64,000 bases of DNA from positions 675-64,674 of the forward strand of contig JARGFQ010000005.1 in NCBI GenBank assembly GCA_029210565.1. Direction: 5' to 3'. Under the pieces are notes generated by a model. The model did no database searches, was not told the DNA's origin, and saw only the letters and a list, made by a program, of their open reading frames with translations. This document shows, one piece after another, positions 5,171-40,621 of the stretch (positions within the stretch are counted from its first letter, which is position 1; each line of letters begins with the position of its first letter). Made by a program: the position numbers and the translations under genes. Source of the stretch: Bacteroidales bacterium. Lineage in GTDB: Bacteria; Bacteroidota; Bacteroidia; Bacteroidales; VadinHA17.

Positions 5171-5233
5171 TACAGCATCAGAATTTAATATAAATTACTC
5201 CTGATTCGGAGTGCAATTTAAAAACAAAGGAAA

Positions 5234-5307
5234 GAAACTTGTATGAGTAATGGATCACCTGGTGATTTGAAAACAAAAATTCATGCAAGTTTCATAAGAC
5301 CAATGAA
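5234..5307 (+). promoter_or_regulatory. Conserved 74-nt hairpin + AGACCAATGAA box, copy A, ending 19 nt before the start codon at 5327
   Basis: The 12-bp stem pairs 5234..5245 (GAAACTTGTATG) with 5282..5293 (CATGCAAGTTTC) and contains one G.U pair. It is followed by ATAAGACCAATGAA (5294..5307). A second copy lies at 39287..39360. Confidence 0.55.
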
Positions 5308-5326
5308 TTAAAAATCAGAAGATATT

Positions 5327-6460
5327 ATGAAAAAGATTACTGTTCTGGGGGCCGGCATGGTCGGAAGAGCGATGGCAGGGGAGTTGTCAAAAAAGCACCG
5401 GGTCACCTCGGCGGATATTGATGCCAAAGCACTGGACATGCTGCCGGAGGGATCCGGCATAGGGAAGACACATCTTGATGTCACTGACCATGAGGCCCTC
5501 GCCTCAGCCATCAGCGGTTCTGACATTGTTATCTCGGCCGTACCCGGGTTCCTTGGGTTGCAGACGATGGAGCAGGTCATCAGGCAAAAGAAAGACCTGG
5601 TTGATATCTCCTTTCTTCCGGAGGATGCAGGGCATCTTGACTCCCTTGCCAGGGAGATGGGTGTGACCGTGGTCATGGACTGCGGTGTCGCGCCGGGGAT
5701 GCCCAATTACATAGTGGGGTATCACAGTGAGAGGATGAAGATCGAGGCTATGGAGTATATGGTTGGCGGCCTGCCAAAAACCAGGATCTGGCCTTTTGAA
5801 TATAAGGCCCCTTTCTCACCGTGCGATGTCATTGAAGAGTATACCCGCCCGGCGCGCTATGTGGAGAACGGGAGAACGGTCGTCAAGCCCGCGATGAGTG
5901 ACCCGGAAAAAATATATTTTGACGGCGTGGGCACTCTGGAGGCTTTCAACACCGATGGCCTGCGATCGCTCATCCGTACCATGAACCACATTCCCGATAT
6001 GAAGGAGAAGACGCTCCGCTACCCCGGGCACATAAGCCTTATAATGGCCCTGAGAGATGCCGGGTTCTTCGGGAAGGAGCCTGTTTCAGTGAAGGGCACG
6101 GATGTGACTCCCCTGGATTTCACCTCGAAGATCCTGTTCGAGGCCTGGAAGCTGGGTGAGGAGGAGCCTGAGTTCACGGTTATGCGTATTAGGATCAGGG
6201 GCAAGGAAGAGGGAGTTGCCAGGGAGATCACATATGACCTGTATGATAAATTTGACCCGGTAGAAAAGCGCTCTTCGATGGCCAGGACGACAGGTTTCAC
6301 TGCCACGGGCACGGCGGAGATGATTCTGAGCGGCATTTTTAGCGAAAAGGGGGTCTTTCCCCCGGAGCTTGTGGGCAGGGATGAAAAGTGTTTCGAATTT
6401 ATTATCAGCTATCTGCGCGATCGCAATATTCATTACAGGGTTACAACCCTGAACATTTGA
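5327..6460 (+). CDS. Saccharopine dehydrogenase family NAD(P)-binding oxidoreductase
   Basis: It has an N-terminal Rossmann motif KKITVLGAGMVGRAMA, and its length and C-terminal half are typical of the Sacchrp_dh_NADP/Sacchrp_dh_C architecture. Confidence 0.7.
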   Translation: MKKITVLGAGMVGRAMAGELSKKHRVTSADIDAKALDMLPEGSGIGKTHLDVTDHEALASAISGSDIVISAVPGFLGLQTMEQVIRQKKDLVDISFLPEDAGHLDSLAREMGVTVVMDCGVAPGMPNYIVGYHSERMKIEAMEYMVGGLPKTRIWPFEYKAPFSPCDVIEEYTRPARYVENGRTVVKPAMSDPEKIYFDGVGTLEAFNTDGLRSLIRTMNHIPDMKEKTLRYPGHISLIMALRDAGFFGKEPVSVKGTDVTPLDFTSKILFEAWKLGEEEPEFTVMRIRIRGKEEGVAREITYDLYDKFDPVEKRSSMARTTGFTATGTAEMILSGIFSEKGVFPPELVGRDEKCFEFIISYLRDRNIHYRVTTLNI

Positions 6461-9111: not shown

Positions 9112-12060
9112 TCACCCGTCATATCCGGGTTTCATGACCACCCCGAGTTTCTTACGGCCGTCAATCATCACCGTCAGCGGTTCCGGGAACCTCACATGCC
9201 GCAGAAGGTCGTCCTCATACAGAGTCTCTGCCGTTTTCAGGAACTCATAATCGACATGCCCGTCGCCAAGGAACGGGTTAACCGTGAAATAGCCAACACG
9301 GAAGGCTGTCAGGTTCTGGAAGAAATGTGTCCCCTGGCTGGGATCTATGCGGTAGTCTTCCAGTCCGGATTCAACAATGATCCTTGCCGCGGATATCTGC
9401 TGCCATTTTATCGGTATCCCCCGCCACTCGTCGCTCGAACCCCACCGTCCCGGTCCGATGAGGATATAATTCTTCTCCTCCTCCAGGAATTTTGCATTGA
9501 TATCATTCAGCCTGGCCGCGATCTCGGGGTTCTTCGAAGCCTCGAAGTTCTCGTTCCTCACGTAGACAACATCGCAGATGTCGCTTACCGTGCCGTTACC
9601 AAGCGCAAGTGCTGATGCGACGACCGTTCTGTCCTGGGGGATCTCCTCCAACCTGAATTTGATGGTCTCGTAGTTCTCGACTATAGGCCTGATCTGGAGC
9701 AGGTTGAACGCTACCGGTTTTTTTCTTTCGGGATCTATGTTGGCAGCAAACTCAATCTCAACGGGGTTGTTCAGCTGTTGCTGTCCGGTCTCAAGGACCT
9801 TGCGCAGTATCTCTGACAGAGGAAAGAGGTCATATTTCAGAATGTTGGCGAAGGTGATGACCTTTTTGCCTCCTTCCACCGGCTCGTCACGCAGCATATC
9901 ATCCTGGTAGTCATAGGTTGAGGCTACAAACCTCAGGGTGCCGTCATTTTCGGCATCGCTGACCTTCAGCCGCAGCAGGTTTACCGAGTCATCGGTACTG
10001 GGGACAAAGCTTGCCGGGTTGAGGTCGAGGGCATAGAATTCCTGCTGTGTTTCACGCAAGGCCATCGTGGTGTCTGACAGCTGGATAATCTTTCCCGGGT
10101 ATTTTGGCGAAAATCTGAGTGCGATACCCCCGTCAACGATATATTTCCCCAGGCCGAAGGCAAGACTGACGAATCCGTCTTCCGGCTTCTCAGGCTCAAC
10201 GGGGTAAAAGTTAATAGAGCGTGCGACCCCGGAGATTGTCGGATAGAAGCGGTTCCCATATTGCTGTCCGCACACCTCCTGAAGGACGATACCCATCTTC
10301 TCCTCCTCGATCTGGTTGGCGGTGGCCTTCATGTAATCGCGGCTGCCCCTGAAGAAGACAGAGGCGTAGACGCTCTTGATGCCGGTGCTCAACAGGTCGA
10401 GCATGACCACATCATTGTCGGCCTTGGGGATCATGTATGTCGAGTATACGCCGGCAAAAGGCTGGAAATGTGAGTCTTCCAGCAGGCTTGACGACCTTAT
10501 CGCCACCGGCCCGCTTATTATTGAGATAAAGACAAGCAGGTCCTTGTGTATTCTCATCGGCAGCCTCGCCTTGATGAAGGCGTCGAGGATCTCACTGTCG
10601 CTGCTCCCTGACAGTCCGATCTCCAGCAGTGAGTTGTCAGCGATGAACTCATCGAACACGTCAGTGCTGAGCACCACGGTACGTGGGATGGAGATGACGG
10701 TATCCTCAAAATTTTCAAAGCTGCCGTTCTGCTTCACAAGATAATCGAGGAATGCCAGTCCTCGGGCCTTGCCTCCCATGGATCCCTCACCGATCCTGGT
10801 AAAGGTAAGGTACTCATCAAAATGTTCCCGGTAGAAATCGGCGATCACGCCGTGACCCTTGCTGAGGCGGAAGTTGGCAATGGTATCGAAGATGAAGCGG
10901 CGAGCCTGGTCAAGGCTTGTAAAGTCGTCGAGGCTGATCTCCTTCAGGAACTCCGCCAGCGAAAATAGTGCCCTGGCGGTGAGCCATTTTGAGAGATGGT
11001 TGCGCGACAGGTGGTAGCGAAACGACTCATCGGGTATCTCAAACAGCTTGCGCTGGAAGTTCTGAAGGTCGGAGATCCTGGCTATCTCTGCACCTGTTTC
11101 AGGATCTGTAAAGATGAAATCGCCAAAGGAAAAATGTATTTTGAGGAGAGCCTCCAGATCCGCCGGCAGGGTGGGGGAGTTATGGTTCAGGAATGTTTTT
11201 CCGTATTCAACTGCAACCTTTTCGTTTTCAGGGCTGGACGAATGTATAATAATAGGAATGTTGGTATCATAATCCTTTATCTGCCTGAAGAAGTCGAGCA
11301 GGGTGCCGCTCTTCCTGTTCTCGTTGCGGTATAGCTCTGCATCACTGATGACGCCCAGGAGCTCTGTTTTGTGTTTTTCGAAGAGTTCACGGGCCTGGTC
11401 GTAGCCGGTGGCAAGCAGGATCTTGGGCCTGCCGCGCATCTGCATCATCTTCTGGTGCTCGTTGAGGCCCTCGCTCATATACCGGCGCGACTGTTCCAGT
11501 ATTATGCCGTAGAGATAGCGCAGATAGACGGTAGCCATACGTATGGAGCTTTCGACGAGCAGTACCGACTGGATACCCTCATGACGGGCATCTTCATCGA
11601 CATTCAGCTTGTCTTCTATCAGGCTGATGATGGGAAGCAGGATATTGGTGCTTCCCAGCCAGTTAAAGACATAGTCGATACACTTCAGCTCTTCGCTGTC
11701 AAGCCTGATGGCTATCTCCCTGGAGACGGGAGCCAGGATGACAATAGGCTTGTCAGGATATTGGGATTTGATCTTCAGAGACAGATCGAACGGATCCATA
11801 TCGCTGATGCTCAGCATATTTATGATCAGATCGATCTGTCTTGTGGCCAGTGCCTCCAGTGCCTCTTCAGCTGATTTCACATGCACGAACCGGGGAGGAT
11901 ATCGAAGATTGAATGAGACGTAATCATTGAAAACCTTCTCATCAATCTTCCCGTCCTCCTCCATAATGAAGGCGTCGTACCTGCTGCAGATCAGGAGAAC
12001 ATACTGAACTCTCTTCTGCATGAGGAGTTCAAAGGAGGTGTCTCTGAAGATCTTTTTCAC
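9112..12060 (-). CDS. Receiver-like x2 + PEP/pyruvate-binding (PPDK_N-type ATP-grasp) protein with an uncharacterised GPGRWG C-terminal domain (short paralogue)
   Basis: The GTG start lies 3 nt after the gdhA stop. Receiver-like block: VLLVESS...GVISDAEL. ATP-grasp motifs: GGKARGLAFL, VAIRSSSLLEDSHFQPFAGVYSTY, EEEKMGIVLQEVCG, VEIEFA, LLQIRPI. C-terminal motifs are GPGRWGSSDEWRGIPIKW and SQGTHFFQN. It is paralogous along its length to residues ~600-1558 of the ORF at 13564..18240. Confidence 0.8.
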   Translation of the reverse strand: MKKIFRDTSFELLMQKRVQYVLLICSRYDAFIMEEDGKIDEKVFNDYVSFNLRYPPRFVHVKSAEEALEALATRQIDLIINMLSISDMDPFDLSLKIKSQYPDKPIVILAPVSREIAIRLDSEELKCIDYVFNWLGSTNILLPIISLIEDKLNVDEDARHEGIQSVLLVESSIRMATVYLRYLYGIILEQSRRYMSEGLNEHQKMMQMRGRPKILLATGYDQARELFEKHKTELLGVISDAELYRNENRKSGTLLDFFRQIKDYDTNIPIIIHSSSPENEKVAVEYGKTFLNHNSPTLPADLEALLKIHFSFGDFIFTDPETGAEIARISDLQNFQRKLFEIPDESFRYHLSRNHLSKWLTARALFSLAEFLKEISLDDFTSLDQARRFIFDTIANFRLSKGHGVIADFYREHFDEYLTFTRIGEGSMGGKARGLAFLDYLVKQNGSFENFEDTVISIPRTVVLSTDVFDEFIADNSLLEIGLSGSSDSEILDAFIKARLPMRIHKDLLVFISIISGPVAIRSSSLLEDSHFQPFAGVYSTYMIPKADNDVVMLDLLSTGIKSVYASVFFRGSRDYMKATANQIEEEKMGIVLQEVCGQQYGNRFYPTISGVARSINFYPVEPEKPEDGFVSLAFGLGKYIVDGGIALRFSPKYPGKIIQLSDTTMALRETQQEFYALDLNPASFVPSTDDSVNLLRLKVSDAENDGTLRFVASTYDYQDDMLRDEPVEGGKKVITFANILKYDLFPLSEILRKVLETGQQQLNNPVEIEFAANIDPERKKPVAFNLLQIRPIVENYETIKFRLEEIPQDRTVVASALALGNGTVSDICDVVYVRNENFEASKNPEIAARLNDINAKFLEEEKNYILIGPGRWGSSDEWRGIPIKWQQISAARIIVESGLEDYRIDPSQGTHFFQNLTAFRVGYFTVNPFLGDGHVDYEFLKTAETLYEDDLLRHVRFPEPLTVMIDGRKKLGVVMKPGYDG

Positions 12061-12063
12061 GGT

Positions 12064-13407
12064 CTACACCACTCCCTGGGCCAGCATGGCCTCGGCAACT
12101 TTTACAAATCCGCCTATATTGGCTCCGTCGACGTAGTTGATAAATCCGTCTTTCTGTGTTCCATACTTGACGCAGGTAGCGTGTATGTCTTTCATTATGC
12201 GGTGCAGGCGTGTGTCAACCTCCTCACGTGACCATGAGAGGCGCATCGAGTTCTGTGTCATCTCCAGCCCTGATGTAGCCACTCCGCCGGCGTTTGCTGC
12301 CTTACCCGGGCCATAGAGGATCTTATGGTGCAGGAAGGCATTTACTGCATCCGGTGTGGATGGCATATTGGCGCCCTCGGAGACCACGAAGCATCCGTTT
12401 TTGACCAGCATCTCGGCGTCAGCGCCGCTTATCTCATTCTGGGTGGCGGCGGGCAGGGCTACCTGGCATGGTACATCCCACGGTCCGGATTTGCCGTCGA
12501 CGTATGTGCATCCGTACTTATCTGCATACTCTTTGATACGGCCTCTCTTTACGTTCTTCAGGTTCTTCACGAAGGCAAGCTTTTCATCGTTGATGCCTTC
12601 CGGGTCATAGATATAACCGTTGGAGTCGGAGAGAGTGACCACTTTGGCACCCATCTGTATGGCTTTTTCAGTGGCAAACTGAGCCACGTTGCCGGAGCCA
12701 GAGACAGCACAGACCTTACCCTTGAGCGAGTCACCCCTGGTGTTGAGCATCTCCTCGGCAAAATAGACCTGGCCATAGCCTGTTGCCTCAAGCCTTATGA
12801 GGCTGCCGCCCCAGTCGAGCCCCTTGCCGGTCAGTACGCCGGTAAATTCGTTGCGCAGTCTCTTGTACTGGCCGAAGAGGAAGCCTATCTCCCTTCCGCC
12901 TACCCCGATATCTCCTGCCGGAACGTCAGTGTCAGCGCCGATATGTCTTTGCAGTTCACTCATGAACGACTGGCAGAAGCGCATCACCTCATTGTCGCTC
13001 TTTTCCTTGGGGTCAAAGTCCGATCCTCCCTTGCCGCCGCCCATGGGCAGTGTTGTGAGGCTGTTTTTCAGCACCTGCTCGAATGCCAGGAACTTAAGGA
13101 TACCCAGGTTAACAGTCGGGTGGAAACGGAGGCCGCCTTTGTAGGGTCCGATGGCGCTGTTCATCTCGATACGGTAGCCTTTGTTTATCTGTATCTCTCC
13201 CTTGTCATCGACCCAGGGGACCCTGAAGAGAATCACCCTTTCGGGTTCGGCCATTCTTTCAAGGATCTTTGCAGACCTGTACTTGGGGTTCTCCATGATA
13301 AAAGGCATAAGAGATTCGGCAACCTCTTTGACAGCCTGATGAAATTCAACTTCGCCGGGGTTTTTGGCGATGATCTTCGCCATGAATTCTTCAACGGGGT
13401 TTGACAT
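12064..13407 (-). CDS. gdhA: NADP-specific glutamate dehydrogenase
   Basis: This is a 447-aa Glu/Leu/Phe/Val dehydrogenase with the catalytic-Lys region LPMGGGKGGSDFDPKEKSDNEV and the dinucleotide fold VSGSGNVAQ. Confidence 0.95.
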   Translation of the reverse strand: MSNPVEEFMAKIIAKNPGEVEFHQAVKEVAESLMPFIMENPKYRSAKILERMAEPERVILFRVPWVDDKGEIQINKGYRIEMNSAIGPYKGGLRFHPTVNLGILKFLAFEQVLKNSLTTLPMGGGKGGSDFDPKEKSDNEVMRFCQSFMSELQRHIGADTDVPAGDIGVGGREIGFLFGQYKRLRNEFTGVLTGKGLDWGGSLIRLEATGYGQVYFAEEMLNTRGDSLKGKVCAVSGSGNVAQFATEKAIQMGAKVVTLSDSNGYIYDPEGINDEKLAFVKNLKNVKRGRIKEYADKYGCTYVDGKSGPWDVPCQVALPAATQNEISGADAEMLVKNGCFVVSEGANMPSTPDAVNAFLHHKILYGPGKAANAGGVATSGLEMTQNSMRLSWSREEVDTRLHRIMKDIHATCVKYGTQKDGFINYVDGANIGGFVKVAEAMLAQGVV

Positions 13408-13444
13408 TGCTGTAGGGTTTTAAGAGTTAATGTTTGACATTTAA

Positions 13445-13452
13445 CAAATTTA
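13445..13452 (-). promoter_or_regulatory. Candidate Bacteroidota -7 box (TAAATTTG) for gdhA
   Basis: The plus-strand CAAATTTA is the reverse complement of TAnnTTTG and lies 38 nt upstream of the gdhA ATG. The same extended 12-mer TTAACAAATTTA recurs upstream of the M16 peptidase gene at 48085..48096. Confidence 0.4.
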
Positions 13453-13563
13453 TGTAATTAATTCTCCAAATTTTTCAGCCATGTAATAAATTATGATCTA
13501 TTTTTTTAACTTACATAACCAATTTTTCATCTGAGGGCATTGTCATAACCTTAACCGACTTTT

Positions 13564-16500
13564 ATGAAGACGGAGGATATATCGAAATTGCAGAAGGAGA
13601 TGCAGAAGCTCCTGGCGGAGAAGATCCAGAGCCAGAAGGGGTTATCGATTATCTATACCATCAATAAGGTCATCAGCAGGAAGAGCAGCATTGATAAGAC
13701 CCTCAACGAGATAGTCGGAGAGATTACCAAGGCGTGGCAGTTCTCGGAGTACTGTCATGCCCGTATCAAATATGACGGTCAGGAATACCGGCTTCCCGGG
13801 TTCAGGGAGACACGGTGGATACAGAAGCAGATCTTTGAAACATACGATAAGAAATGGGGTGCCATTGACGTCTTTTATACAAAGCAGTTTCCGAAGGCCG
13901 ATGAGGGTCCGTTTCTGCATGAAGAGAGACAGCTGCTTGAAAACATAGCAACGATAGTATCCAATTATCTTAATTCGCAGCAGGGAGCCGAACAGAAGGA
14001 TGAAGGAGACCAGGATGTCACCCTGAAGTTGGAGCGGTCAAGACGGTTGAGCGAGGAGAAGAATATCGAGGATGCTCTCTCACAGATCAGCAGGAACATG
14101 CCCAAATCATGGCAGTATCCGGAACATGCCGTGGCCCGGATCCTTTATGACGGGAAGGAATACCTGAGTTCCGACAAGGATTTTTCGGACAGCCAGCTGA
14201 GCCTGAAGGAGGAGTTCACGACCATAAACCACAAATCGGGGACAATTGAGCTTCATTACCTTAAGGGCTTCCCCGCCACCCTGGAGGAGTCATACCTCAG
14301 GTCGGAGGAGGAGTTGCTGGGCAACATGGCGAACCTTATTACCGGGTTTATAAACATCATCAAGGGTAATGAGATCAGGCAGCCTGCCGACAGGGAGGAG
14401 GAGGGCGGGGGGAAGAAGGCTGACAACAGGATCTTTGCAAGCATAAATGAGATTTCAAAGAGGCTCAGGAGCGGAACGTTCATTGAGTCCACCCTCAATG
14501 AGATACTTGAGGTCATACCCCGTGCCTTCAGGTTTCCTGATGAGATCAGATGCAGGATCATTTATGAAGACCTTGAGTTTTCATCACCTCGTCTTAGTGA
14601 GACCTCTTTTTATATCACTGCCGCTTTCAAGACCATCACCGGAAAGAGCGGTTCTGTGCAGGTTTTCTATACCGGGGAGGGGCTCCCGGATGGGGAGGAG
14701 CCTTTCCTTGAGGAGGAAAAGCAATATGTTGAGACCCTGGCACTGCTGATATCTGGTTTTATCAATCTCATCTGTGGTCTCGACTCTGTACTTGCCACCG
14801 AGGAGGGCATGAAGGAGATACTCTATGAGAAGACGGAGAGGATCAAGGAGCTGGCCTGCATTAACCAGACCACATCGATACTCCAGGCTGAGAAATCCGT
14901 TGAAAAGGCCCTGAAGCAGATCGTCTATATCCTTCCTGACGCCTGGCAGTACCCTGAGAATACCGTTGCCCGAATCAGCTTTGATAACAATGAGTACATG
15001 TCGCCCAACTTCACGGTTACCAAGTGGCGTCAGCGGCAGCCCTTCCTCACCATCGATGACAAGTTCGGAGAGGTGGAGATATACTATACAAAGGAGTTCC
15101 CGGATCTTGATGAGGGCCCTTTCATGAAGGAGGAGAGGGACCTGATAAATAATATCTCCACCCTGATATGCAATTACCTGAACAGCGTTCAGGGGGAGGT
15201 TGCCATAAAGAAATACAGGTCTGATGAGGAGCTTAAGGAGAAATACCAGGCCGCCAGGGATTATCTTCTGAACAAGAGGAAGCTGCTTCAGAACTTCCTG
15301 GAGAAGAACAACTATGACCGCGACATCTTCCACGACCTTATGAAGTTCAAGGTTAAGGAGATACTCATAATCTCAAACCTTTATGATGCCTACAGCCTCG
15401 AGCGCGAGGGCAAGTTCTCTGATTACATCCTGGGTGTCTACTATCAGCTTAACCTGACTTCAATACCCCGCATAACTGGCGTTTCATCGTTTGAGGAGGC
15501 CTTTGAGAAGCTCTATGCCAAACACTATGACCTCATAATCATCATGGTGGGAGTGGACAGGAAGACGCCTCTGGAGATTGCATCAAAGCTGAAGGCACTT
15601 TATCAGTATATACCCATATATCTTCTGCTGAACAATAATCAGTACGTCGGATATTTCCAGGAGGAACAGAAGAAGACCAGCCTTATTGACAACGTCTTTG
15701 TCTGGAACGGCGACTCGAGGATATTCTTTGCCATGGTCAAGCAGCTTGAGGATTTTGTCAACGTGGATAATGACACCAGGGTAGGTTACAGCCGCATCAT
15801 ATTACTTGTCGAAGACTCCGCCAAGTACTATTCACGCTACATACCGCTGTTATATCACTGTGTGATGGAACAGACCAGGAGAATCATTGAGGATGTCAGC
15901 CCCATGGATGAACTTTACAAGGTGCTTCGCCTGAGGGTGCGTCCGAAGATACTCATGGCCTCCAATTACGAGGAGGCGATCCAGATCTTCAACAAATACA
16001 AGGATTTCTTCCTCTGCCTCATTACAGACGTAAAGTTTGACAAGAATTCAAAGTTCGATGAGAATGCAGGATTTGAGCTGGTCAGTTATGTGAAATCGGA
16101 GATCCCCGACCTGCCCACCATCATCCAGTCATCCGACCGTAGCAATGAGAAGATGGCAAAGGATCTGAACTGCGTCTTCATTCACAAGAATTCCGATACT
16201 CTTGCCCAGGACATAAGAGCCTTCATCAGCTACAACCTGGGGTTCGGGGATTTCATATACCAGGATGAGACGGGACGTACCATAGGTACAGCCAGGAACA
16301 TGAATGAGTTTGAGGAGCAGCTGCAGTATATCCCCACGGAGACCCTTTTGTATCATGCACGCAGAAATCATTTTTCCTTATGGCTCACCGCCCGCGGGGA
16401 GATACAGCTGGCCAGGGAGATAGCCCCGAAAAAGACCAGTGATTTCAAAGATCCGGAGTCGTTACGCGACTACCTGGTAAAGATTGTCAAGCAGCTCAAG

Positions 16501-18240
16501 TACGAAAAGAACAAGGGCAAGATCGTCGAGTTCGATGAGACTTTGATACTTGAGGAGAGCAATATCATCCAGCTCTCTCCGGGTGCGTTGGGTGGCAAGG
16601 GTCGGGGACTGGCCTTTATTCATACGCTGATATACAACTTTGACATTGCCAATTATGTCCCGGGGATAAACATCAAGGCGCCGAGGACCTTTATTATCGG
16701 GACTAACGAGTTTGAGGATTTTCTCGATAACAACAAGCTGCGGAACAAGATCTATTCCGAGACCAATTACGAAACCATCAAGAAGCTGTTCGTTGAGGGC
16801 AAGCTTTCGCAGCCGCTTGTCAAGAAGTTGCAGGTCATCCTGGAGAAGATAACCAAACCTCTGGCTGTCAGGTCTTCAGGACTGTTCGAGGACTCACTGA
16901 TGCAGCCTTTTGCCGGTATCTTTGAGACCTATCTGCTGCCCAACAGCAATAACGATGTCAAAGTCAGGCTGAAGCAGCTGACTGACGCTATCAAGCTTGT
17001 CTATGCCTCCATCTATTCGGAGACGGCCAGGGGTTATATCAGCGCCATCAACTACAAGATCGAGGAGGAGAAGATGGCGGTGATAATACAGGAGGTAGTG
17101 GGAGAGCAGTATGAAAATGTCTATTATCCTCATATCAGCGGCGTGAGCCAGTCGTACAACTATTACCCTTACGGGTACATGCAGCCTGAAGACGGTTTTG
17201 CGGTCATTGCTGTTGGGCTCGGCACCTATGTGGTGGAGGGGGAGAAGGCGTTCCGGTTCTCACCGAAATACCCGAACCTGGAGAACAACACCCCCAAGGA
17301 TCAGTATCTCAATTCTCAGGTTGAATTTTTTGCCGTGGACCTCGACAAGAAGGAGTTCAACCTGCTTGAGGGCGATACAGTCGGGCTGTCGCGGCTGAGC
17401 ATTGAGGATGCCGAGCGACACGGAGCGATAAAGCACTGTGCATCGGTCTATTCAGCCGAAGCGAAGACCATCTACCCTGGCATAGACAAGGCCGGCCCGA
17501 GGGTCATCAATTTTGCCGACATTCTGAAATATGACTACATACCACTGGCTAAATCGCTGGTTGAAATCCTTGATATCGTCAAGGAGGCACTGGGTACTCC
17601 GGTGGAAATCGAGTTTGCGGTTGACCTGACAAGGGACAGTGATTACAAGGCCTCGTTCCACCTGCTTCAGATCAAGCCCATCATAGGGGCGGCGATCGAT
17701 TATGAGGTAAACATGGATGAGATAGACAGATCGCAGATCCTGCTGTATACCGAGAAGAGTATGGGCAACGGAATGATCAGCAATATCCGTGACGTGATAT
17801 ATGTTGACAAGGATACCTTTGACAAGTCGAAAACCTTGGAGATTGCCGGAGAGATAGACGCCTTCAATGCTGAAATGATCAAATCAGACAGGCAGTATAT
17901 ACTTCTCGGGCCGGGCAGATGGGGTACACGTGACAGGTGGATAGGCATTCCGGTCACGTGGCCTCAGATATGCAATGCAAAGGTGATCATTGAAACCGGT
18001 CTTGAGGACTTCCCGCTGGATGCCTCATCGGGATCACACTTCTTTCACAATGTGACCTCGATGAATGTCGGGTATTTCTCCGTTCAGCACAACCAGAAGA
18101 ACTCCGTTCTCAACTGGGAGATACTTGGCAGGCAGAAGGTGGTTAAGCAGAGGAATTATGTGAGGCACGTTCAGTTTAAAAACAGCCTTACCGTGAAGAT
18201 GGACGGCAAGAAGAGGATTTCCGTCATCACCTGGGAATGA
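13564..18240 (+). CDS. Four GAF-like sensor modules + receiver-like x2 + PEP/pyruvate-binding (ATP-grasp) protein with GPGRWG C-terminal domain (long paralogue)
   Basis: Receiver-like block: ILLVEDS...CLITDVKF. ATP-grasp motifs: GGKGRGLAFI, LAVRSSGLFEDSLMQPFAGIFETY, EEEKMAVIIQEVVG, VEIEFA, LLQIKPI. C-terminal motifs are GPGRWGTRDRWIGIPVTW and SSGSHFFHN. It is divergent from gdhA across a 156-bp spacer. Confidence 0.8.
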   Translation: MKTEDISKLQKEMQKLLAEKIQSQKGLSIIYTINKVISRKSSIDKTLNEIVGEITKAWQFSEYCHARIKYDGQEYRLPGFRETRWIQKQIFETYDKKWGAIDVFYTKQFPKADEGPFLHEERQLLENIATIVSNYLNSQQGAEQKDEGDQDVTLKLERSRRLSEEKNIEDALSQISRNMPKSWQYPEHAVARILYDGKEYLSSDKDFSDSQLSLKEEFTTINHKSGTIELHYLKGFPATLEESYLRSEEELLGNMANLITGFINIIKGNEIRQPADREEEGGGKKADNRIFASINEISKRLRSGTFIESTLNEILEVIPRAFRFPDEIRCRIIYEDLEFSSPRLSETSFYITAAFKTITGKSGSVQVFYTGEGLPDGEEPFLEEEKQYVETLALLISGFINLICGLDSVLATEEGMKEILYEKTERIKELACINQTTSILQAEKSVEKALKQIVYILPDAWQYPENTVARISFDNNEYMSPNFTVTKWRQRQPFLTIDDKFGEVEIYYTKEFPDLDEGPFMKEERDLINNISTLICNYLNSVQGEVAIKKYRSDEELKEKYQAARDYLLNKRKLLQNFLEKNNYDRDIFHDLMKFKVKEILIISNLYDAYSLEREGKFSDYILGVYYQLNLTSIPRITGVSSFEEAFEKLYAKHYDLIIIMVGVDRKTPLEIASKLKALYQYIPIYLLLNNNQYVGYFQEEQKKTSLIDNVFVWNGDSRIFFAMVKQLEDFVNVDNDTRVGYSRIILLVEDSAKYYSRYIPLLYHCVMEQTRRIIEDVSPMDELYKVLRLRVRPKILMASNYEEAIQIFNKYKDFFLCLITDVKFDKNSKFDENAGFELVSYVKSEIPDLPTIIQSSDRSNEKMAKDLNCVFIHKNSDTLAQDIRAFISYNLGFGDFIYQDETGRTIGTARNMNEFEEQLQYIPTETLLYHARRNHFSLWLTARGEIQLAREIAPKKTSDFKDPESLRDYLVKIVKQLKYEKNKGKIVEFDETLILEESNIIQLSPGALGGKGRGLAFIHTLIYNFDIANYVPGINIKAPRTFIIGTNEFEDFLDNNKLRNKIYSETNYETIKKLFVEGKLSQPLVKKLQVILEKITKPLAVRSSGLFEDSLMQPFAGIFETYLLPNSNNDVKVRLKQLTDAIKLVYASIYSETARGYISAINYKIEEEKMAVIIQEVVGEQYENVYYPHISGVSQSYNYYPYGYMQPEDGFAVIAVGLGTYVVEGEKAFRFSPKYPNLENNTPKDQYLNSQVEFFAVDLDKKEFNLLEGDTVGLSRLSIEDAERHGAIKHCASVYSAEAKTIYPGIDKAGPRVINFADILKYDYIPLAKSLVEILDIVKEALGTPVEIEFAVDLTRDSDYKASFHLLQIKPIIGAAIDYEVNMDEIDRSQILLYTEKSMGNGMISNIRDVIYVDKDTFDKSKTLEIAGEIDAFNAEMIKSDRQYILLGPGRWGTRDRWIGIPVTWPQICNAKVIIETGLEDFPLDASSGSHFFHNVTSMNVGYFSVQHNQKNSVLNWEILGRQKVVKQRNYVRHVQFKNSLTVKMDGKKRISVITWE
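13645..15190 (+). repeat. Four tandem ~110-130-aa GAF-like sensor modules (coding repeat)
   Basis: The recurrent signature is AWQFSEYCHARIKYDGQEY / SWQYPEHAVARILYDGKEY / AFRFPDEIRCRIIYEDLEF / AWQYPENTVARISFDNNEY. Modules 1, 3 and 4 each end ...DEGPF[LM].EE..L...I...I; module 2 ends with the more divergent LEESYLRSEEELLGNMANLI. Confidence 0.7.
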
Positions 18241-35899: not shown

Positions 35900-36670
35900 A
35901 TGGAATCAAGCGATCAGTACAATTTTAGTATTTTCTCTCCCCGTAATAAGCATGGACGAAAGAACAGGAATGTCATTTTCTCAATGCTTGCAATATGGGC
36001 GGTGGCAGTTTTCGGTTTTCAGTTCCTGCTGAGGGCAATAGAGAAGCCTACACCCGAAAAGGCTCTTACAGTTTTTGAATCTGAGTGGCCCGCTGTGACG
36101 GGGGGTAATGAGGAAATGGCCGACTACCAGGCTATCCTCACTTCACTACTTATGGTAAAAGGTAAGAATACTGTTGCCACAGGTGATCAGCAGCTTCTTA
36201 GTGAGGCAATTAGCACAGTTACATTCCGGATGGTACCCAAATCCCTCAATACGCAGGTAATGGAGAAGGTTGCCGCATTGGAGTTGATGCATGCAGACAT
36301 AGCCGCTTTGAAGGGCCAGGAGTATATGGACCTTAAATTCCGGATACAGGATGCCAGCTCCGGCCTGATAGGAATGCTTGAACCATATACAGGATACGGG
36401 ACAACAAGCCTTGAGGCGCCGATACTTGCTGCAAGTCTCAGAAAGGATTACCCTGCTTCACTGACCGAGGCATCTCTCAGCCGTCTGCCAGACATTATGA
36501 AACTGTATCTCACCCATAACCAGTCGGTGCTTACTGATACAAAATTCCTGGGATTTCCTTTCCATTACTTCTACACTGCCGTCTTTCTGCTGGTGCTTTT
36601 CGTGGTGCTTTGCATAGTCTACAACAGACTGATAGAATGGCGCTTAAACAGGGAAGGCATTGTTGAATAA
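35900..36670 (+). CDS. DUF4212-like solute:sodium symporter small subunit with a ~165-aa insertion between its two TM segments
   Basis: The N-terminal block is RKNRNVIFSMLAIWAVAVFGFQFLL and the C-terminal block is FLGFPFHYFYTAVFLLVLFVVLCIVYNRLIEW. These match the two halves of the normally ~90-aa family. The gene lies directly upstream of an SSS transporter. Confidence 0.6.
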   Translation: MESSDQYNFSIFSPRNKHGRKNRNVIFSMLAIWAVAVFGFQFLLRAIEKPTPEKALTVFESEWPAVTGGNEEMADYQAILTSLLMVKGKNTVATGDQQLLSEAISTVTFRMVPKSLNTQVMEKVAALELMHADIAALKGQEYMDLKFRIQDASSGLIGMLEPYTGYGTTSLEAPILAASLRKDYPASLTEASLSRLPDIMKLYLTHNQSVLTDTKFLGFPFHYFYTAVFLLVLFVVLCIVYNRLIEWRLNREGIVE

Positions 36671-36688
36671 GTTAATTTGCAGAGAGAG

Positions 36689-38368
36689 ATGAAAAAGTTA
36701 TACTTCACATTTATATTACTCCTGTCGGGAGCAATTTCATTAAATGCACAAAATCTCACCCAGCTCGAGGGAAGTTTCAAGACAGGTCCGGCAATCATAC
36801 TTATTGCGATTCTTGTGACATTTGTCCTGGTAGGTATCTTTTTCCGTGCCAAGGATCCTACCGACTATTATGCTGCCGGAAGGAGCATTTCCAAGGTCGG
36901 TTCGGGTATGGCCATCGCATCGAACTGGATGAGTGCAGCATCAGTGCTGGGTATGGCGGGGATGATGTACGGCTTCGGCTACAACGGTCTCGCTTATGTT
37001 GTGGGCTGGACGGGAGGTTATGTTCTGCTGCTGATTCTGATGGCTGCCCAGATCAGGAAATACGGCAAGTATACCGCACCCGACTTTATTGGTGACAGGT
37101 TCTACTCGCGTGATCTGAGGATCGTGAGCGCCATTTTCACAATACTGATATCATTTGCCTACTGCGTGGGACAGTTCGGAGGCATCGGGCTTATGTTCAA
37201 ATGGATCCTGGGCCTTAACTACTCATGGGCGGTCATCATCGGCTCGTCGGTCGTACTGCTCTACACGCTGATCTCCGGAATGATAGGGGCGACGAAGAAC
37301 ATGCAGATACAGTATGTCATTATCGTCACCTCGTTTATGCTTCCGGTATTCATTCTGGCTTTCAAGTTTGATTATTTCTGGCTGTTGCCTCAGATTGGTT
37401 ACGGGGCGGCTGTGACGGACATTGTTCAGGGCATGCCGGCGCCCAACATATCTGACGGTATGGTACTGCTCAATGCCTACAGTCACAACTTCTCCATCGT
37501 TCCCAGTCCTGAATATGCAATGCCGTGGGACCCCTCAACAGGCACAACCTTCTTCCAGTGGATGGCCATCTGTTTTTCACTGATGGTTGGCACGGCAGGA
37601 CTGCCGCACGTGATACAGAGGTTTTACGTCGTGCCGAAGATTACCGATGCACGGTGGTCAGTTGTCTGGGGGCTCTTCTTCATCAGCCTGGTATACTGGA
37701 CTGCGCCTGCGTATGCAACATTCGGAAAGATCCTCTCATCGAATCCCGAGGTGGGCGTGCTTGCCAAGGATGCCATCGTCGTTTACACTGCCCAGCTTGG
37801 TGGAGTGAACTCACTGATCGTAGGCCTGCTTGCCGCAGGCGCCGTCTCGGCAGCCTTCTCCACCGTCTCGGGTCTTCTTGTGGCAGGTGCCTCTGCCTTC
37901 TCGCATGACCTTTATGTCAAGGTCATCAATCCTGCCTCAACCCCGAAGCAACAGCTGAAAATTGCACGGTGGGGCACTGTTCTCATGGCCGTGCTGGTGA
38001 CGGTAGTGGCATTGATGAAGCTGGGACTGATTGCGCAGCTTGTATCCGTCGCTTTTTCAATGGCAGCATGCACCATTTTTCCGCTCTTCCTCCTTGGCAT
38101 CTGGTGGAGCGGAGCAAACAGGGCAGGAGCAAAAGCCGGTCTCTTCGCAGGCAGTCTTGTCACTTTCATCGCCCTGACATACTTCATCGTTGGCCTCAGC
38201 GGAGGCTCCCTTCCGGGCCAGGCCTTCATCTCATACTGGCTTAATGTGTGGTATTTTGCATGGTTTGGAGCGCCACTGGCGATTGTGGTAAATATTATCG
38301 TATCCTTACTGACAAAACCGACACCCCTGGAGATTAAGAAATTTCTTGCTGAACAGGTTCACAATTGA
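36689..38368 (+). CDS. Sodium:solute symporter (SSS) family transporter
   Basis: It has about 13 TMs and typical SSS blocks (YYAAGRSIS, GMAIASNWMSAASVLGMAG, LPHVIQRFY). The ATG at 36689 is preferred over the TTG at 36677. Confidence 0.85.
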   Translation: MKKLYFTFILLLSGAISLNAQNLTQLEGSFKTGPAIILIAILVTFVLVGIFFRAKDPTDYYAAGRSISKVGSGMAIASNWMSAASVLGMAGMMYGFGYNGLAYVVGWTGGYVLLLILMAAQIRKYGKYTAPDFIGDRFYSRDLRIVSAIFTILISFAYCVGQFGGIGLMFKWILGLNYSWAVIIGSSVVLLYTLISGMIGATKNMQIQYVIIVTSFMLPVFILAFKFDYFWLLPQIGYGAAVTDIVQGMPAPNISDGMVLLNAYSHNFSIVPSPEYAMPWDPSTGTTFFQWMAICFSLMVGTAGLPHVIQRFYVVPKITDARWSVVWGLFFISLVYWTAPAYATFGKILSSNPEVGVLAKDAIVVYTAQLGGVNSLIVGLLAAGAVSAAFSTVSGLLVAGASAFSHDLYVKVINPASTPKQQLKIARWGTVLMAVLVTVVALMKLGLIAQLVSVAFSMAACTIFPLFLLGIWWSGANRAGAKAGLFAGSLVTFIALTYFIVGLSGGSLPGQAFISYWLNVWYFAWFGAPLAIVVNIIVSLLTKPTPLEIKKFLAEQVHN

Positions 38369-39144
38369 TGAGTCTAAAAGATCTGACTGTTATATCACCG
38401 GGAACCAGGAAATTGCTGGCAATAACCATTTCGGTTGCATTGGCGGCTGTGATCTTTGCATTTTTCTATTACCGGGGTGTCAACAGGTCAGAAGACCCCC
38501 GGGTAGCAAAGGCCCGTGAGTATATGGCGGAGTATGACCGGCTCTCGGGCGGGACAGAGAGCTATGCCCTGTTCCACCTGCTTGATTCCGCAAACCTGAT
38601 TTACAGGAGGGTGCCAGGGTACGGTTCTTCTTACGAGACAGGCGTCATATACAATAATAAGGGCAGCAGCCTGCTGATGAAAGCGCTGTATGACAGCTCT
38701 TTAACGGAGTCGGGCAAAGTCGCATTCCTTGAGCTTTCCGTCACCTACTGCGACAGCGCCGTTATGGTTTACAGGAACTGGCTTGATGAGTGGGAGGCGT
38801 TCTCAGAAGAGGAGGTTGCAGTGAAGCTGACGGAGGGAATGAGTGAAAACGACCCTGCCTTTGCGGGGCTGAATTTCAAGAGTGTCTTCAGAAAACGTGT
38901 TAAGGATATGATGCTCGCCCGGGTCGAAACCCCGCGGAGGCTATCTGTCAGCTATACCAACAAGGGTACTGCATACCGTCACCTGATGATGCCGGATTCA
39001 GCGCTGGTATTTTATGAAAGGGCACTTTCAATATGGAAGCATAACCGTACGGCAGAGAGCAACCTGAGCGTGCTACTCGGCGGCGAGCCGGTGAAGCCGG
39101 GGATTATCGAGTCGCTCTTTCCTCCGGACAGGAAGAAAAAGTGA
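38368..39144 (+). CDS. Membrane-anchored TPR-like protein
   Basis: It has an N-terminal TM (LLAITISVALAAVIFAFFYY) and TPR-like segments (YTNKGTAYRHLMMPDSALVFYERALSIW). The ATG overlaps the SSS stop (TGATG). Confidence 0.55.
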   Translation: MSLKDLTVISPGTRKLLAITISVALAAVIFAFFYYRGVNRSEDPRVAKAREYMAEYDRLSGGTESYALFHLLDSANLIYRRVPGYGSSYETGVIYNNKGSSLLMKALYDSSLTESGKVAFLELSVTYCDSAVMVYRNWLDEWEAFSEEEVAVKLTEGMSENDPAFAGLNFKSVFRKRVKDMMLARVETPRRLSVSYTNKGTAYRHLMMPDSALVFYERALSIWKHNRTAESNLSVLLGGEPVKPGIIESLFPPDRKKK

Positions 39145-39286
39145 AAGACAGACATAACAGATTCTCCGGTGCGAAGAAGAACCAGATGACAGGTTGATCA
39201 GGCAATCCGACAGGAGAAAAATTGAACGACAAACCGATCAGACGAAAAGACCAGGATCAAAAAATGAAATCAAAACAGAATAGGAT

Positions 39287-39360
39287 GAAACTTACATGTG
39301 CAGTAACCCGAAAAGGGGAATGATTATTTCACCACATGTAAGTTCCATTAGACCAATGAA
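39287..39360 (+). promoter_or_regulatory. Conserved 74-nt hairpin + AGACCAATGAA box, copy B, ending 19 nt before the start codon at 39380
   Basis: The stem pairs 39289..39300 (AACTTACATGTG) with 39333..39344 (CACATGTAAGTT), a perfect 12 bp. It is followed by ATTAGACCAATGAA (39347..39360). Confidence 0.55.
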
Positions 39361-39379
39361 ATTATAATTAAATAATCTA

Positions 39380-40621
39380 ATGAAAAAGTTATTACTGTTA
39401 ATTGTAGTTCTCATCTGCCTGGGACCGCCGGCTTTGGCCCAGGATGAAGACAAGGGGTGGGGGATAAAGGTCTCGGGATTCGTGAAGACGGATATCTTTT
39501 ATGATACCAGGCAGTCTACCGCCTCAAACGGCCTCAGGGAGGGACATTTTTACCTCTATCCCGACAATGTGCTTTATGACGAGGATATGAACGATCTCAA
39601 TGCCAACCCTTCGTTTCATATTCTGAACATACAAACCAGGGTCAGGGGTGATATCAAAGGCCCTGACGCCTTCGGTGCGAGGACATCGGGAGCCATCGAG
39701 GCCGAGTTCTTCGGAACGGGCGAGAGTGACATCAACGGCTTCAGGCTGCGGCATTCCTATGTTAAGATGGAGTGGCCCAAGGTGACACTTCTGGCCGGCC
39801 AGTACTGGCATCCCATGTTTCCGGCAGAGAATTTTCCCGGTACTGTCAGCTTTAACACAGGAGCGCCTTTCGTTCCCTTCAGTCGTAATCCGCAGGTAAG
39901 GTTTGTGTACAATCCCGGCACTTTTCTTAGCCTGACTATGGTGGCATACTCTCAGCGCGACTTCACCTCGTCGGGCCCGGACGGCAACAGCAGCAAATAT
40001 ATCAGGAACAGCGGAAGGCCCGGGATGCATCTGCAGTTCAGGCTGCCGGCCGGGGATAATCTGACAGCCTGGGGTGGGGTGGATTATAAGGTTTTGAGGC
40101 CAGAGATAAAGACTTCCGCCAATATTGAGACCGATGCCACCGTGGGAAGCCTGTCTGCCTTTGCCTCACTGAAGCTGAAGGCCGGGCCGGTGAATCTGTC
40201 AGTCATGGGAGTATACGCAGAGAACGGAAGTGATATGGTGATGATAGGAGGCTATGCAGCTACGGGTACTCCTGATCCTGTTGATCTCTCCAGGGAGTGG
40301 ACCACCCTTAATACCGCCTCCTTCTGGGCTGACATCAGTACAACTGTCAATAAGACCCACCTGGGCATCTTCTCAGGCTATTGCAAGAACCTCGGGGCGA
40401 AGGAACCGGTTGACGGAGACTTTTTCGGCAGGGGGAGTAATATAGATCATCTCTTCAGGCTCTCTCCGAGGATTATGGTTACGGAAGGCAAGCTGAGCAT
40501 TGCTGCTGAGCTTGAGAACACCCTGGCTGCTTACGGAACGACGCAGCCTGACGGCAGAGTGGCCGATACCGGCAGTGTCACCAATATGCGCCTGCTGCTC
40601 AGTTTCATCTACCGTTTTTAG
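39380..40621 (+). CDS. Outer-membrane porin-like beta-barrel
   Basis: It has a signal peptide MKKLLLLIVVLICLGPPALAQ, alternating strands, and a C-terminal ...LLLSFIYRF with terminal Phe. Confidence 0.7.
   Translation: MKKLLLLIVVLICLGPPALAQDEDKGWGIKVSGFVKTDIFYDTRQSTASNGLREGHFYLYPDNVLYDEDMNDLNANPSFHILNIQTRVRGDIKGPDAFGARTSGAIEAEFFGTGESDINGFRLRHSYVKMEWPKVTLLAGQYWHPMFPAENFPGTVSFNTGAPFVPFSRNPQVRFVYNPGTFLSLTMVAYSQRDFTSSGPDGNSSKYIRNSGRPGMHLQFRLPAGDNLTAWGGVDYKVLRPEIKTSANIETDATVGSLSAFASLKLKAGPVNLSVMGVYAENGSDMVMIGGYAATGTPDPVDLSREWTTLNTASFWADISTTVNKTHLGIFSGYCKNLGAKEPVDGDFFGRGSNIDHLFRLSPRIMVTEGKLSIAAELENTLAAYGTTQPDGRVADTGSVTNMRLLLSFIYRF

Follow-up and report, generated by a model that had tools for sequence, protein, structure and literature searches.

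Two hairpin units upstream of unrelated genes in a Bacteroidales genome probably belong to a dispersed family of miniature insertion elements bounded by ATGAA

A hairpin followed by an 11-nt conserved box occurs twice in a 64,000-nt stretch of a Bacteroidales genome (assembly GCA_029210565.1, contig JARGFQ010000005.1, positions 675 to 64,674; hereafter the window), once before a saccharopine-dehydrogenase-family gene (copy A, 5234..5307) and once before a porin gene (copy B, 39287..39360). The question raised by this pair is why two unrelated genes should have a similar structured element at an identical distance from their start codons. The preliminary description of the locus had left two readings side by side, a structured cis-regulatory element or a domesticated miniature repeat. 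Our analysis points to the repeat: we consider it about 75% probable that A and B are two of the non-coding miniature insertion elements that make up a dispersed family in Bacteroidota. The family is previously undescribed, and the kind of element that it represents, the miniature insertion repeat, is already known. The window itself is from Bacteroidota (it encodes a type IX secretion CHU_C domain and has ∼50% G+C), and one sister assembly is GCA_032251055.1.

Both copies were found at the positions first reported, and their arms pair as had been described, including G5241-C5286 and U5242.G5285 in copy A and A39294-U39339 and C39295-G39338 in copy B, although an A.C mismatch in the stem of copy B had been missed (Table 1). 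The spacing of 19 nt between box and ATG was confirmed to be identical in the two. Their similarity is not due to chance, as judged by comparison with shuffled sequences, by the distribution of the box and by covariance scores. Folding gave z = −5.8 for A and −3.7 for B, with none of 200 shuffles equally good. In the 64 kb there are just two exact matches to the box, AGACCAATGAA (at 5297 and 39350), and ATGAAAAAG lies exactly 19 nt 3′ of each (at 5327 and 39380). A covariance model built from 18 related units scored copy A at 104 bits (E 5e-17) and copy B at 87 bits (E 7.5e-14). The same model gave dozens of matches in related loci but no third copy in the window, where the next match, of 24.6 bits, was the reverse strand of copy A. 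At the G-C/A-U pair that distinguishes A from B, 13 of the 18 units had GC, 4 had AU and 1 had GU. The full units extend over 5232-5331 (A) and 39285-39384 (B), 100 bp each, and have in common a 12-bp stem, the box, a 19-nt AT-rich tail and the terminal ATGAAAAAG. The start of the dehydrogenase gene is supported by a Rossmann GxGxxG motif from residue 7 and that of the porin gene by its signal peptide.

Table 1. Positions of the parts of copies A and B in the window.
Feature	Positions	Strand	Remarks
Copy A distal terminal pentanucleotide	5232..5236	+	degenerate AAGAA; ATGAA in sister assembly (L023), TGAA in relative (L038)
Copy A main hairpin P1	5231..5296	.	arms 5234-5245/5282-5293; base extended to 5231/5296
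Copy A inner hairpin within P1	5252-5268		GGATCAC CTG GTGATTT
Copy A box AGACCAATGAA	5297..5307	+	opposite strand reads TTCATTGGTCT
Copy A AT-rich 19-nt tail	5308..5326	+	now directly 5′ of dehydrogenase start codon
Copy A gene-proximal ATGAA	5327..5331	+	start codon plus two bases of saccharopine-dehydrogenase-family gene (5327-6460)
Copy B distal ATGAA	39285..39289	+	opens 12-codon upstream open reading frame 39285-39323, MKLTCAVTRKGE*; repeat boundary here in four metagenomes
Copy B main hairpin P1	39284..39349	.	arms 39287-39298/39335-39346; A.C at 39288/39345 is G.T on opposite strand
Copy B box AGACCAATGAA	39350..39360	+	
Copy B AT-rich 19-nt tail	39361..39379	+	
Copy B gene-proximal ATGAA	39380..39384	+	start of porin gene 39380-40621; signal peptide MKKLLLLIVVL...

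The extent of the family was determined by scanning one representative genome per species, and then metagenome contigs, for the 21-mer pattern AAGTTNCATNAGACCAATGAA. This gave 22 genome loci and 14 metagenome loci (related loci are numbered with the prefix L, and runs with X), a few of which were chance matches in coding sequence. The majority of the loci, from Bacteroidales metagenome-assembled genomes (MAGs), Rikenellaceae, Thermophagus and Flavobacterium, had the complete architecture. Two near-identical contigs labelled Methanosarcina sp. UBA5 (L004, 992-1012; L008, 2766-2786) carried the 21-mer inside an apparent coding sequence; lacking both the hairpin and the ATGAA spacing, they were rejected as chance matches. 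Units found without the pattern had the box variants AGGCCAATTAC, TGACCAATGTA and AGACTATTAAA. Searches of plasmid, phage and IMG/VR collections gave nothing, or chance coding matches only, and the literature, searched by sequence words and by topic, held no description of the family.

When aligned on the gene strand, the unit consists, in this order, of (R)ATGAAAC, TTGCATG, a small inner hairpin (TGAGC...GCTCA), CACAAAAGG..ATGA..., CATGCAA, GTTCCAT, one variable base, AGACCAATGAA, an AT-rich stretch of 18-19 nt ending in C[T/G][A/G], and ATGAA. Units elsewhere are 57-143 bp long, compared with 100 bp in the window, and have a G+C content of 24-36%; every unit has ATGAA at each of its ends. 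No inverted repeat relates the two termini (ATGAAACTTGCATG... and ...AAATTATTTTCTGATGAA); the one that is present lies inside the unit, with some 35 nt of box and tail 3′ of its 3′ arm. The hairpin varies in length, its foot being ATGAAAC/GTTCCAT, and in short variants (Flavobacterium carA, L015, L030) there is only this foot and a loop of about 10 nt, whereas longer variants have extra small hairpins. Long modular units were seen at L031 (9667-9942), L012 (198-320) and L009 (6300-6420), with an extra loop segment, ACCGAAGCTCGA(C/T)GCAGTC, and that of L031 also has a second hairpin, CCCGCATTGGCGGG, between GTTCC and the box. In Thermophagus xiamenensis (L013, 1434-1500) a different short repeat, with AGTCATTAG and CTAATGACTAAC motifs, stands directly 5′ of a box and tail that lack the hairpin, and a tRNA-like sequence lies 3′ of that copy. 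Several other features of the units were examined and set aside. A hammerhead ribozyme, suggested by CUGAUGA at unit junctions, was rejected because this motif varies (CUAAUGA and CGAAUGA are found as well) and the stem is not followed by GAAA; the resemblance of GAAACTT/GGAACTT to the −35 element of an ECF sigma factor was not accompanied by a conserved −10 element; and the variable base in a potential small hairpin, CAUU-AGACC-AAUG, does not covary.

Several genomes contain head-to-tail arrays of two to four units, in which one ATGAA is common to each junction. The ATG 19 nt downstream of an internal box is in this case the ATGAAAC that opens the next unit, and the spacing is therefore a property of the repeat. 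The repeat unit includes both the 3′ ATGAA and a further ATGAA(AC), which lies at the hairpin's 5′ foot. The distance that A and B have in common to two unrelated start codons is thus explained, because the ATG in each case is the terminal, or target, pentanucleotide of the element.

Copy number was gauged from contigs of run X22 by aligning them to one array of an array-bearing lineage. Single-copy flanking sequence had a depth of about 21, compared with a summed depth of 1000-1900 for the unit, and 142 contigs matched the unit, which implies in the order of 50-100 copies per genome in this lineage. The X22 contigs diverge at two precise points, immediately before the A of ATGAAAC and immediately after the distal ATGAAA, and the number of units in arrays differs between contigs; the repeat breaks the assembly of this lineage. 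The boundaries of copy B (39285 and 39385-39388) recur in four other metagenomes that contain ∼90% relatives of the window genome, in which some 20 contigs per run carry the copy B unit, and relatives of the window genome have at least 10-20 copies; over the family as a whole the number per genome extends from a few to roughly 50-100. A terminal duplication longer than ATGAA was considered and rejected, since the flanks of individual copies do not match past the pentanucleotide.

Filled and empty sites were compared at the carA gene, for which Flavobacterium homologues were fetched with their flanks. In the empty site of F. gilvum (L046) the promoter −7 box, TAAATTTG, is followed by 18 nt and ATGAAATATACAAC; in a second empty lineage (L047, L048) it is followed by 17 nt and ATGAACTACACAAC, the start being ATGAAC. 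In the filled sites (L002, L022, L044, L045 and L050) the same −7 box is followed by 18 nt and then by ATGAAAC, a further 57-60 nt and ATGAAATA(C/T)ACAAC. The insertion is exact: it has left ATGAA on each side, the first of these at the old promoter distance, and the gene itself is intact. Inherited copies are decaying in some species, where the box reads AGACTATTAAA, and in L049 the copy is barely recognisable. The carA products of different Flavobacterium genomes have been called as 366, 372, 390 or 393 aa (for example L047, 1501-2682; L048, 839-2020), the long calls beginning at upstream TTG or ATG codons in the leader, so that leader sequence misleads start-codon calling.

At the porin gene, an empty site was found in a ∼90% relative of the window genome, on a contig of run X9 that links the porin ATG with the end of the TPR gene preceding it. 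Here the equivalent of 39146 is joined to 39380 through TCAAAACAGAATATG, which matches window positions 39270-39284 and is followed directly by ATGAAAAAG, so that the joint at the porin ATG reads ...CAGAATATG and then ATGAAAAAG, with the 95-nt unit missing. The same relative also lacks a 123-nt unique intergenic segment that lies between the TPR gene and copy B in the window (39147-39269), and only about 17 nt separate its TPR stop codon from the porin ATG, a short gap that suggests an operon DUF4212-SSF-TPR-porin. For the dehydrogenase gene, orthologues with 89-92% identity had copy A at the same place in diverged form, whereas those with 75% (in a syntenic position) and 73% identity (L039-L042) had no element and a start that still reads ATGAAAAG/ATGAAAAAG. 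The 75% genome (L039) is the same MAG that has a unit before a different gene (L019). Read from these comparisons, the pattern is one of sporadic insertion and not of a leader tied to one gene.

The genes that follow the units bear on why the element stands on start codons. In about 19 of 29 terminal units the last ATG starts a real gene, with typical N-termini such as MKYDVIIIGGGLGG and MKILFDKYEGAGNDF. These genes are unrelated to each other, encoding a dehydrogenase, a porin, CarA, DapF, a TonB-dependent receptor, an FAD oxidoreductase, a ferredoxin-domain protein, an LD-carboxypeptidase and lipoproteins, among others. The remaining terminal units are orphans, in which a stop codon occurs after 3-50 codons, and some arrays run into a convergent gene from its 3′ side. 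Of 42 genes called crudely in the window, 13 start with ATGAA; among its ATGAA/TTCAT sites, 23 are intergenic and 224 are in or overlap coding sequence. We propose that the target is the pentanucleotide ATGAA/TTCAT, that insertions inside genes would be purged, and that roughly one-third of the genes in these genomes probably open with ATGAA(A/T). Under such a scheme the surviving copies would be found mostly on start codons and in one orientation. It predicts that about 40% of survivors would lie on start codons in the sense orientation, compared with about 65% observed, a difference for which we infer that modest extra selection suffices.

The alternative that the preliminary description had also entertained is a structured regulatory RNA in the 5′ untranslated region (a leader, a translational switch or a protein-binding element) that is selected on the mRNA, its hairpin and box controlling the start codon. 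Several features would suit this idea. Wherever a gene follows, the element is in the sense orientation, and at Flavobacterium carA and some other loci it occupies the interval from promoter to start codon. Its stem shows compensatory G-C/A-U changes and, in some copies, sense-strand G.U pairs; for GUUCCAU both the upstream AUGAAAC and the start codon are potential partners, and in copy A it is the sense strand that folds better. However, the downstream genes are unrelated, about one-third of terminal units have no gene and some arrays run into the 3′ end of a convergent gene; orthologues at 73-75% identity do without the element; copies that are inherited vertically have a decaying box; in 30 of 32 units it is the antisense strand that has the better fold; and 50-100 copies per genome in one lineage would be hard to reconcile with a leader of this kind. 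Rfam 15 gave no match to the whole window at gathering thresholds, and when copy B and a three-unit array were compared at E values up to 10 only chance-level microRNA and snoRNA matches appeared. We therefore regard a gene-specific regulatory RNA as a poor candidate, whereas the many copies in many genomes, the tandem arrays and the precise filled and empty sites favour the miniature repeat that had been proposed beside it, which may or may not be domesticated in the sense of affecting translation or mRNA stability. No RNA run containing the window organism was found. In runs X19-X21, labelled as oligo-dT RNA-Seq of a coded organism, many bacterial contigs of up to 40-50 kb end in the element (L031, 2300-3300); these may be expressed copies or DNA carried over from a Bacteroidales associate and, being undirected, were not used as proof of transcription.

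How a repeat of this kind might move is suggested by the IS200/IS605 transposons. These insert downstream of a pentanucleotide, the transposon-adjacent motif (TAM), recognise it by means of a DNA guide that pairs with it at the foot of a hairpin, end in a similar transposon-encoded motif, cause no duplication and leave scarless empty sites; they also have protein-free derivatives, the PATEs, and TTCAT is a documented TAM (Meers et al., 10.1101/2023.03.14.532601). Our tentative proposal, to which we give somewhat less than an even chance, is that the present family is mobilised as PATEs or REPs are, by an HUH enzyme acting on single-stranded DNA. The strand antisense to the gene would fold as single-stranded DNA, TTCAT would serve both as the transposon-adjacent target motif and as the terminal motif of the element itself, this motif would pair with ATGGAA at the 5′ foot of the hairpin, and an HUH tyrosine transposase supplied in trans would cut and join at TTCAT. 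Because the element would end in its own target, new copies would insert beside old ones and so give head-to-tail arrays. Several properties of the units are consistent with this. The antisense strand reads TTCAT and then, from boundary to boundary, the tail, TTCATTGGTCT, ATGGAAC, the stem-loop and GTTTCAT, and its fold is the better of the two in 30 of 32 units under RNA parameters (all but copy A and its sister) and in 25 of 32 under DNA parameters. On this strand the A.C mismatch conserved in GAAAC/GTTCC is a G.T pair; the variable position of the foot was A.C (G.T in antisense) in 13 units, A-U in 1 and G-C in 1, which is limited covariation. The antisense ATGGAAC 5′ of the foot pairs canonically with the terminal GTTTCAT, and the flanking TTCAT is another potential partner for it. 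Essentially all copies have the same boundary motif.

Other routes to the same arrangement were weighed against this one. In a conventional miniature inverted-repeat transposable element moved by a DDE transposase, a strong preference for ATGAA(A) would be combined with duplication of 5-6 bp on insertion, and the small, non-coding, multicopy units, with ATGAA(A) on both sides of filled sites and one copy in empty sites, do look like a target-site duplication. Yet there are no terminal inverted repeats, the inverted repeat being internal with ∼35 nt beyond its 3′ arm, a duplicated sequence that is the same at essentially every copy is unusual except for very short TA or TNA targets, and regular head-to-tail arrays with one repeat per junction do not fit either; such an origin appears improbable. 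Still less can be said for an origin in which a tyrosine or serine recombinase acts site-specifically on ATGAA as a common core, in the manner of integron attC sites. A core duplicated at both junctions, a hairpin-centred site whose AAC...GTT at the foot recalls the R″/R′ cores of attC, and the existence of integrons with tandem ‘empty cassettes’ bring it to mind, but the foot ATGAAAC/GTTCCAT agrees with RYYYAAC/GTTRRRY only in AAC/GTT, the units are 57-100 bp without cargo, and neither the window nor the related loci contained an integrase or cassette array, the neighbours being housekeeping genes in both orientations. We hold it to be very improbable. The same applies to an origin with no dedicated mobility, by slippage, unequal crossing-over or microhomology-driven template switching at ATGAAA, with retention of the product as a good initiation region. 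Flanking direct repeats of 5-6 nt are suited to slippage, unit number in arrays differs between contigs, the tail is AT-rich like Bacteroidetes initiation regions, and the hot spot of change at copy A between near-identical assemblies (see below) fits ectopic conversion; against this, 5-6 nt of microhomology is a poor means of reaching 50-100 copies and dozens of unlinked loci, retention for function is hard to square with orphans and gene-less arrays, and near-identical 21-mers recur in different bacterial orders.

The proposal of an insertion element moved by an HUH enzyme has its own difficulties. Neither a transposase nor an autonomous partner came to light, and about 0.5 Mb of loci, which amounts to a few percent of any genome, contained no HUH-like open reading frame; nor was there a long insert between the arms of any unit or a transposase beside the hairpin-less Thermophagus copies. 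There is one main hairpin per unit in place of separate left-end and right-end hairpins (a second small hairpin occurs only in some variants), the foot pairing is ordinary Watson-Crick pairing, unlike the non-canonical guide contacts of IS608, and the box has no assigned partner. One ATGAA in empty sites and two in filled ones fit a TAM plus an identical encoded motif and a DDE duplication of 5-6 bp equally well, and the empty sites could in principle be precise deletions between ATGAA repeats. Very close strains showed no presence/absence polymorphism that would attest recent movement. Finally, the folding advantage of the antisense strand may partly reflect an A-rich sense strand, and the conservation of the 21-mer across the phylum is partly an ascertainment effect of the search pattern.

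Whatever its mode of movement, the element would alter what precedes a gene. The consensus Bacteroidetes promoter, TTTG-N17-23-TAnnTTTG, was not matched in any unit, and where a promoter is recognisable it lies 26-39 nt 5′ of the distal ATGAA. The unit is therefore likely to be transcribed within the leader or, for the porin gene, probably as a spacer between cistrons of the DUF4212-SSF-TPR-porin operon. The gene would keep an intact ATGAA start, with the AT-rich tail of the element as its new translation-initiation region, and the distal ATGAA, at the old promoter distance, would open an upstream open reading frame (uORF) of 3-15 codons that ends in or just past the hairpin. In most long units this mini-uORF reads MKLA*; in copy B it is 12 codons long, and copy A of the window has lost it (ATG to AAG). 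Conserved mini-reading frames (MKLA*, MN*/MK*) were rejected as a coding feature, as fixed nucleotides and the AT-rich tail explain them. Bacteroidota do not rely on Shine-Dalgarno pairing for translation initiation. The tail resembles the initiation regions of this phylum, so that insertion may be nearly harmless.

Copy A is also a site of local change. Over 14.3 kb in which the window was compared with the sister assembly GCA_032251055.1 (L023, L043), 13 of 16 differences fell at 5207-5296, all of them in copy A or the 25 nt 5′ of it, whereas copy B is identical in the sister assembly. Comparison with an outgroup (L038) showed that changes had occurred at copy A in both lineages, window and sister. 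Those of the window created a perfect inner palindrome, ATCACCTGGTGAT, destroyed the distal ATG and closed the A.C mismatch. The cluster could have arisen by conversion from a paralogous copy, by import of a short tract or by local hypermutation. A bolder view would be that this is a start-codon-homing single-strand DNA element partly co-opted by its host, rewiring the translation of dozens of genes through tail, mini-uORF and hairpin, with the burst of change at copy A as adaptive tuning; we think this unlikely.

Two neighbourhoods in the window are recorded here for completeness. Around copy B (35900-43479) are genes for a DUF4212 small membrane protein and a sodium:solute symporter, an acetate-permease-like pair, and for a TPR protein and a DcaP-like porin, with a 953-aa Cache-PAS-CBS-DUF294 nucleotidyltransferase sensor on the opposite strand. 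At 9112-18240 a glutamate dehydrogenase gene lies between genes for two very large PPDK_N-domain proteins (982 and 1558 aa), an arrangement that is kept in relatives at 75-92% identity (L038, L039).

Among known systems, the PATEs, which are mobilised in trans by the Y1 HUH protein TnpA, resemble the family in being small, non-coding, multicopy and hairpin-built, in lacking terminal inverted repeats, and in having a fixed pentanucleotide boundary, one motif in the empty site, TTCAT as a documented TAM and a terminal motif that pairs with the foot. The present units differ from them in having one main hairpin instead of two, identical adjacent and encoded motifs, canonical foot pairing, a length of only 57-143 bp and regular head-to-tail arrays, and in that no TnpA was identified. 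REP/REPIN-RAYT systems and BIME mosaics are also extragenic hairpin repeats, with tens to hundreds of copies per genome, single or in mosaic clusters, and with modular extra hairpins; REPs are thought to be moved by a single-copy HUH enzyme. They are, however, 20-40 nt long and G+C-rich with a GTAG/CGTC tag, whereas this family is AT-rich, bounded by ATGAA, equipped with a conserved 11-nt box and a fixed-length tail, and found on start codons and not mostly downstream of genes. Correia elements of Neisseria and the ERIC/IRU sequences of enterobacteria are hairpin repeats of ∼100-150 bp in transcribed intergenic DNA that can alter mRNA structure and the expression of a neighbouring gene. In contrast to this family, they have true terminal inverted repeats and a TA duplication, and neither regenerate a start codon nor supply an initiation region. 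On Borrelia plasmids, free-standing IS605 stem-loops are tied to lipoprotein genes and evolve independently, partly at the RNA level (Delihas, 2009; PMC2775950). These too are hairpins of the transposon-end type attached to genes without a transposase, but they lie at the 3′ ends of genes and come from an identified IS605, whereas our units lie at the start codon and no parent element was found for them.

These results explain away an apparent regulatory RNA common to two unrelated genes and define in its place, by exact boundaries and by empty sites, a repeat family that is absent from Rfam and could not be traced in the literature searched. In practical terms, the element breaks the assemblies of some Bacteroidales genomes, its spurious upstream ATGs and short reading frames can mislead the calling of start codons, and comparative screens can mistake it for a riboswitch-like motif. 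If the HUH model is true, it would represent a minimal single-hairpin substrate in which the target motif is the element's own end. In biological terms, each insertion is a natural experiment in which the whole region upstream of a start codon has been swapped for a standard cassette, in organisms in which start-site selection is poorly understood.

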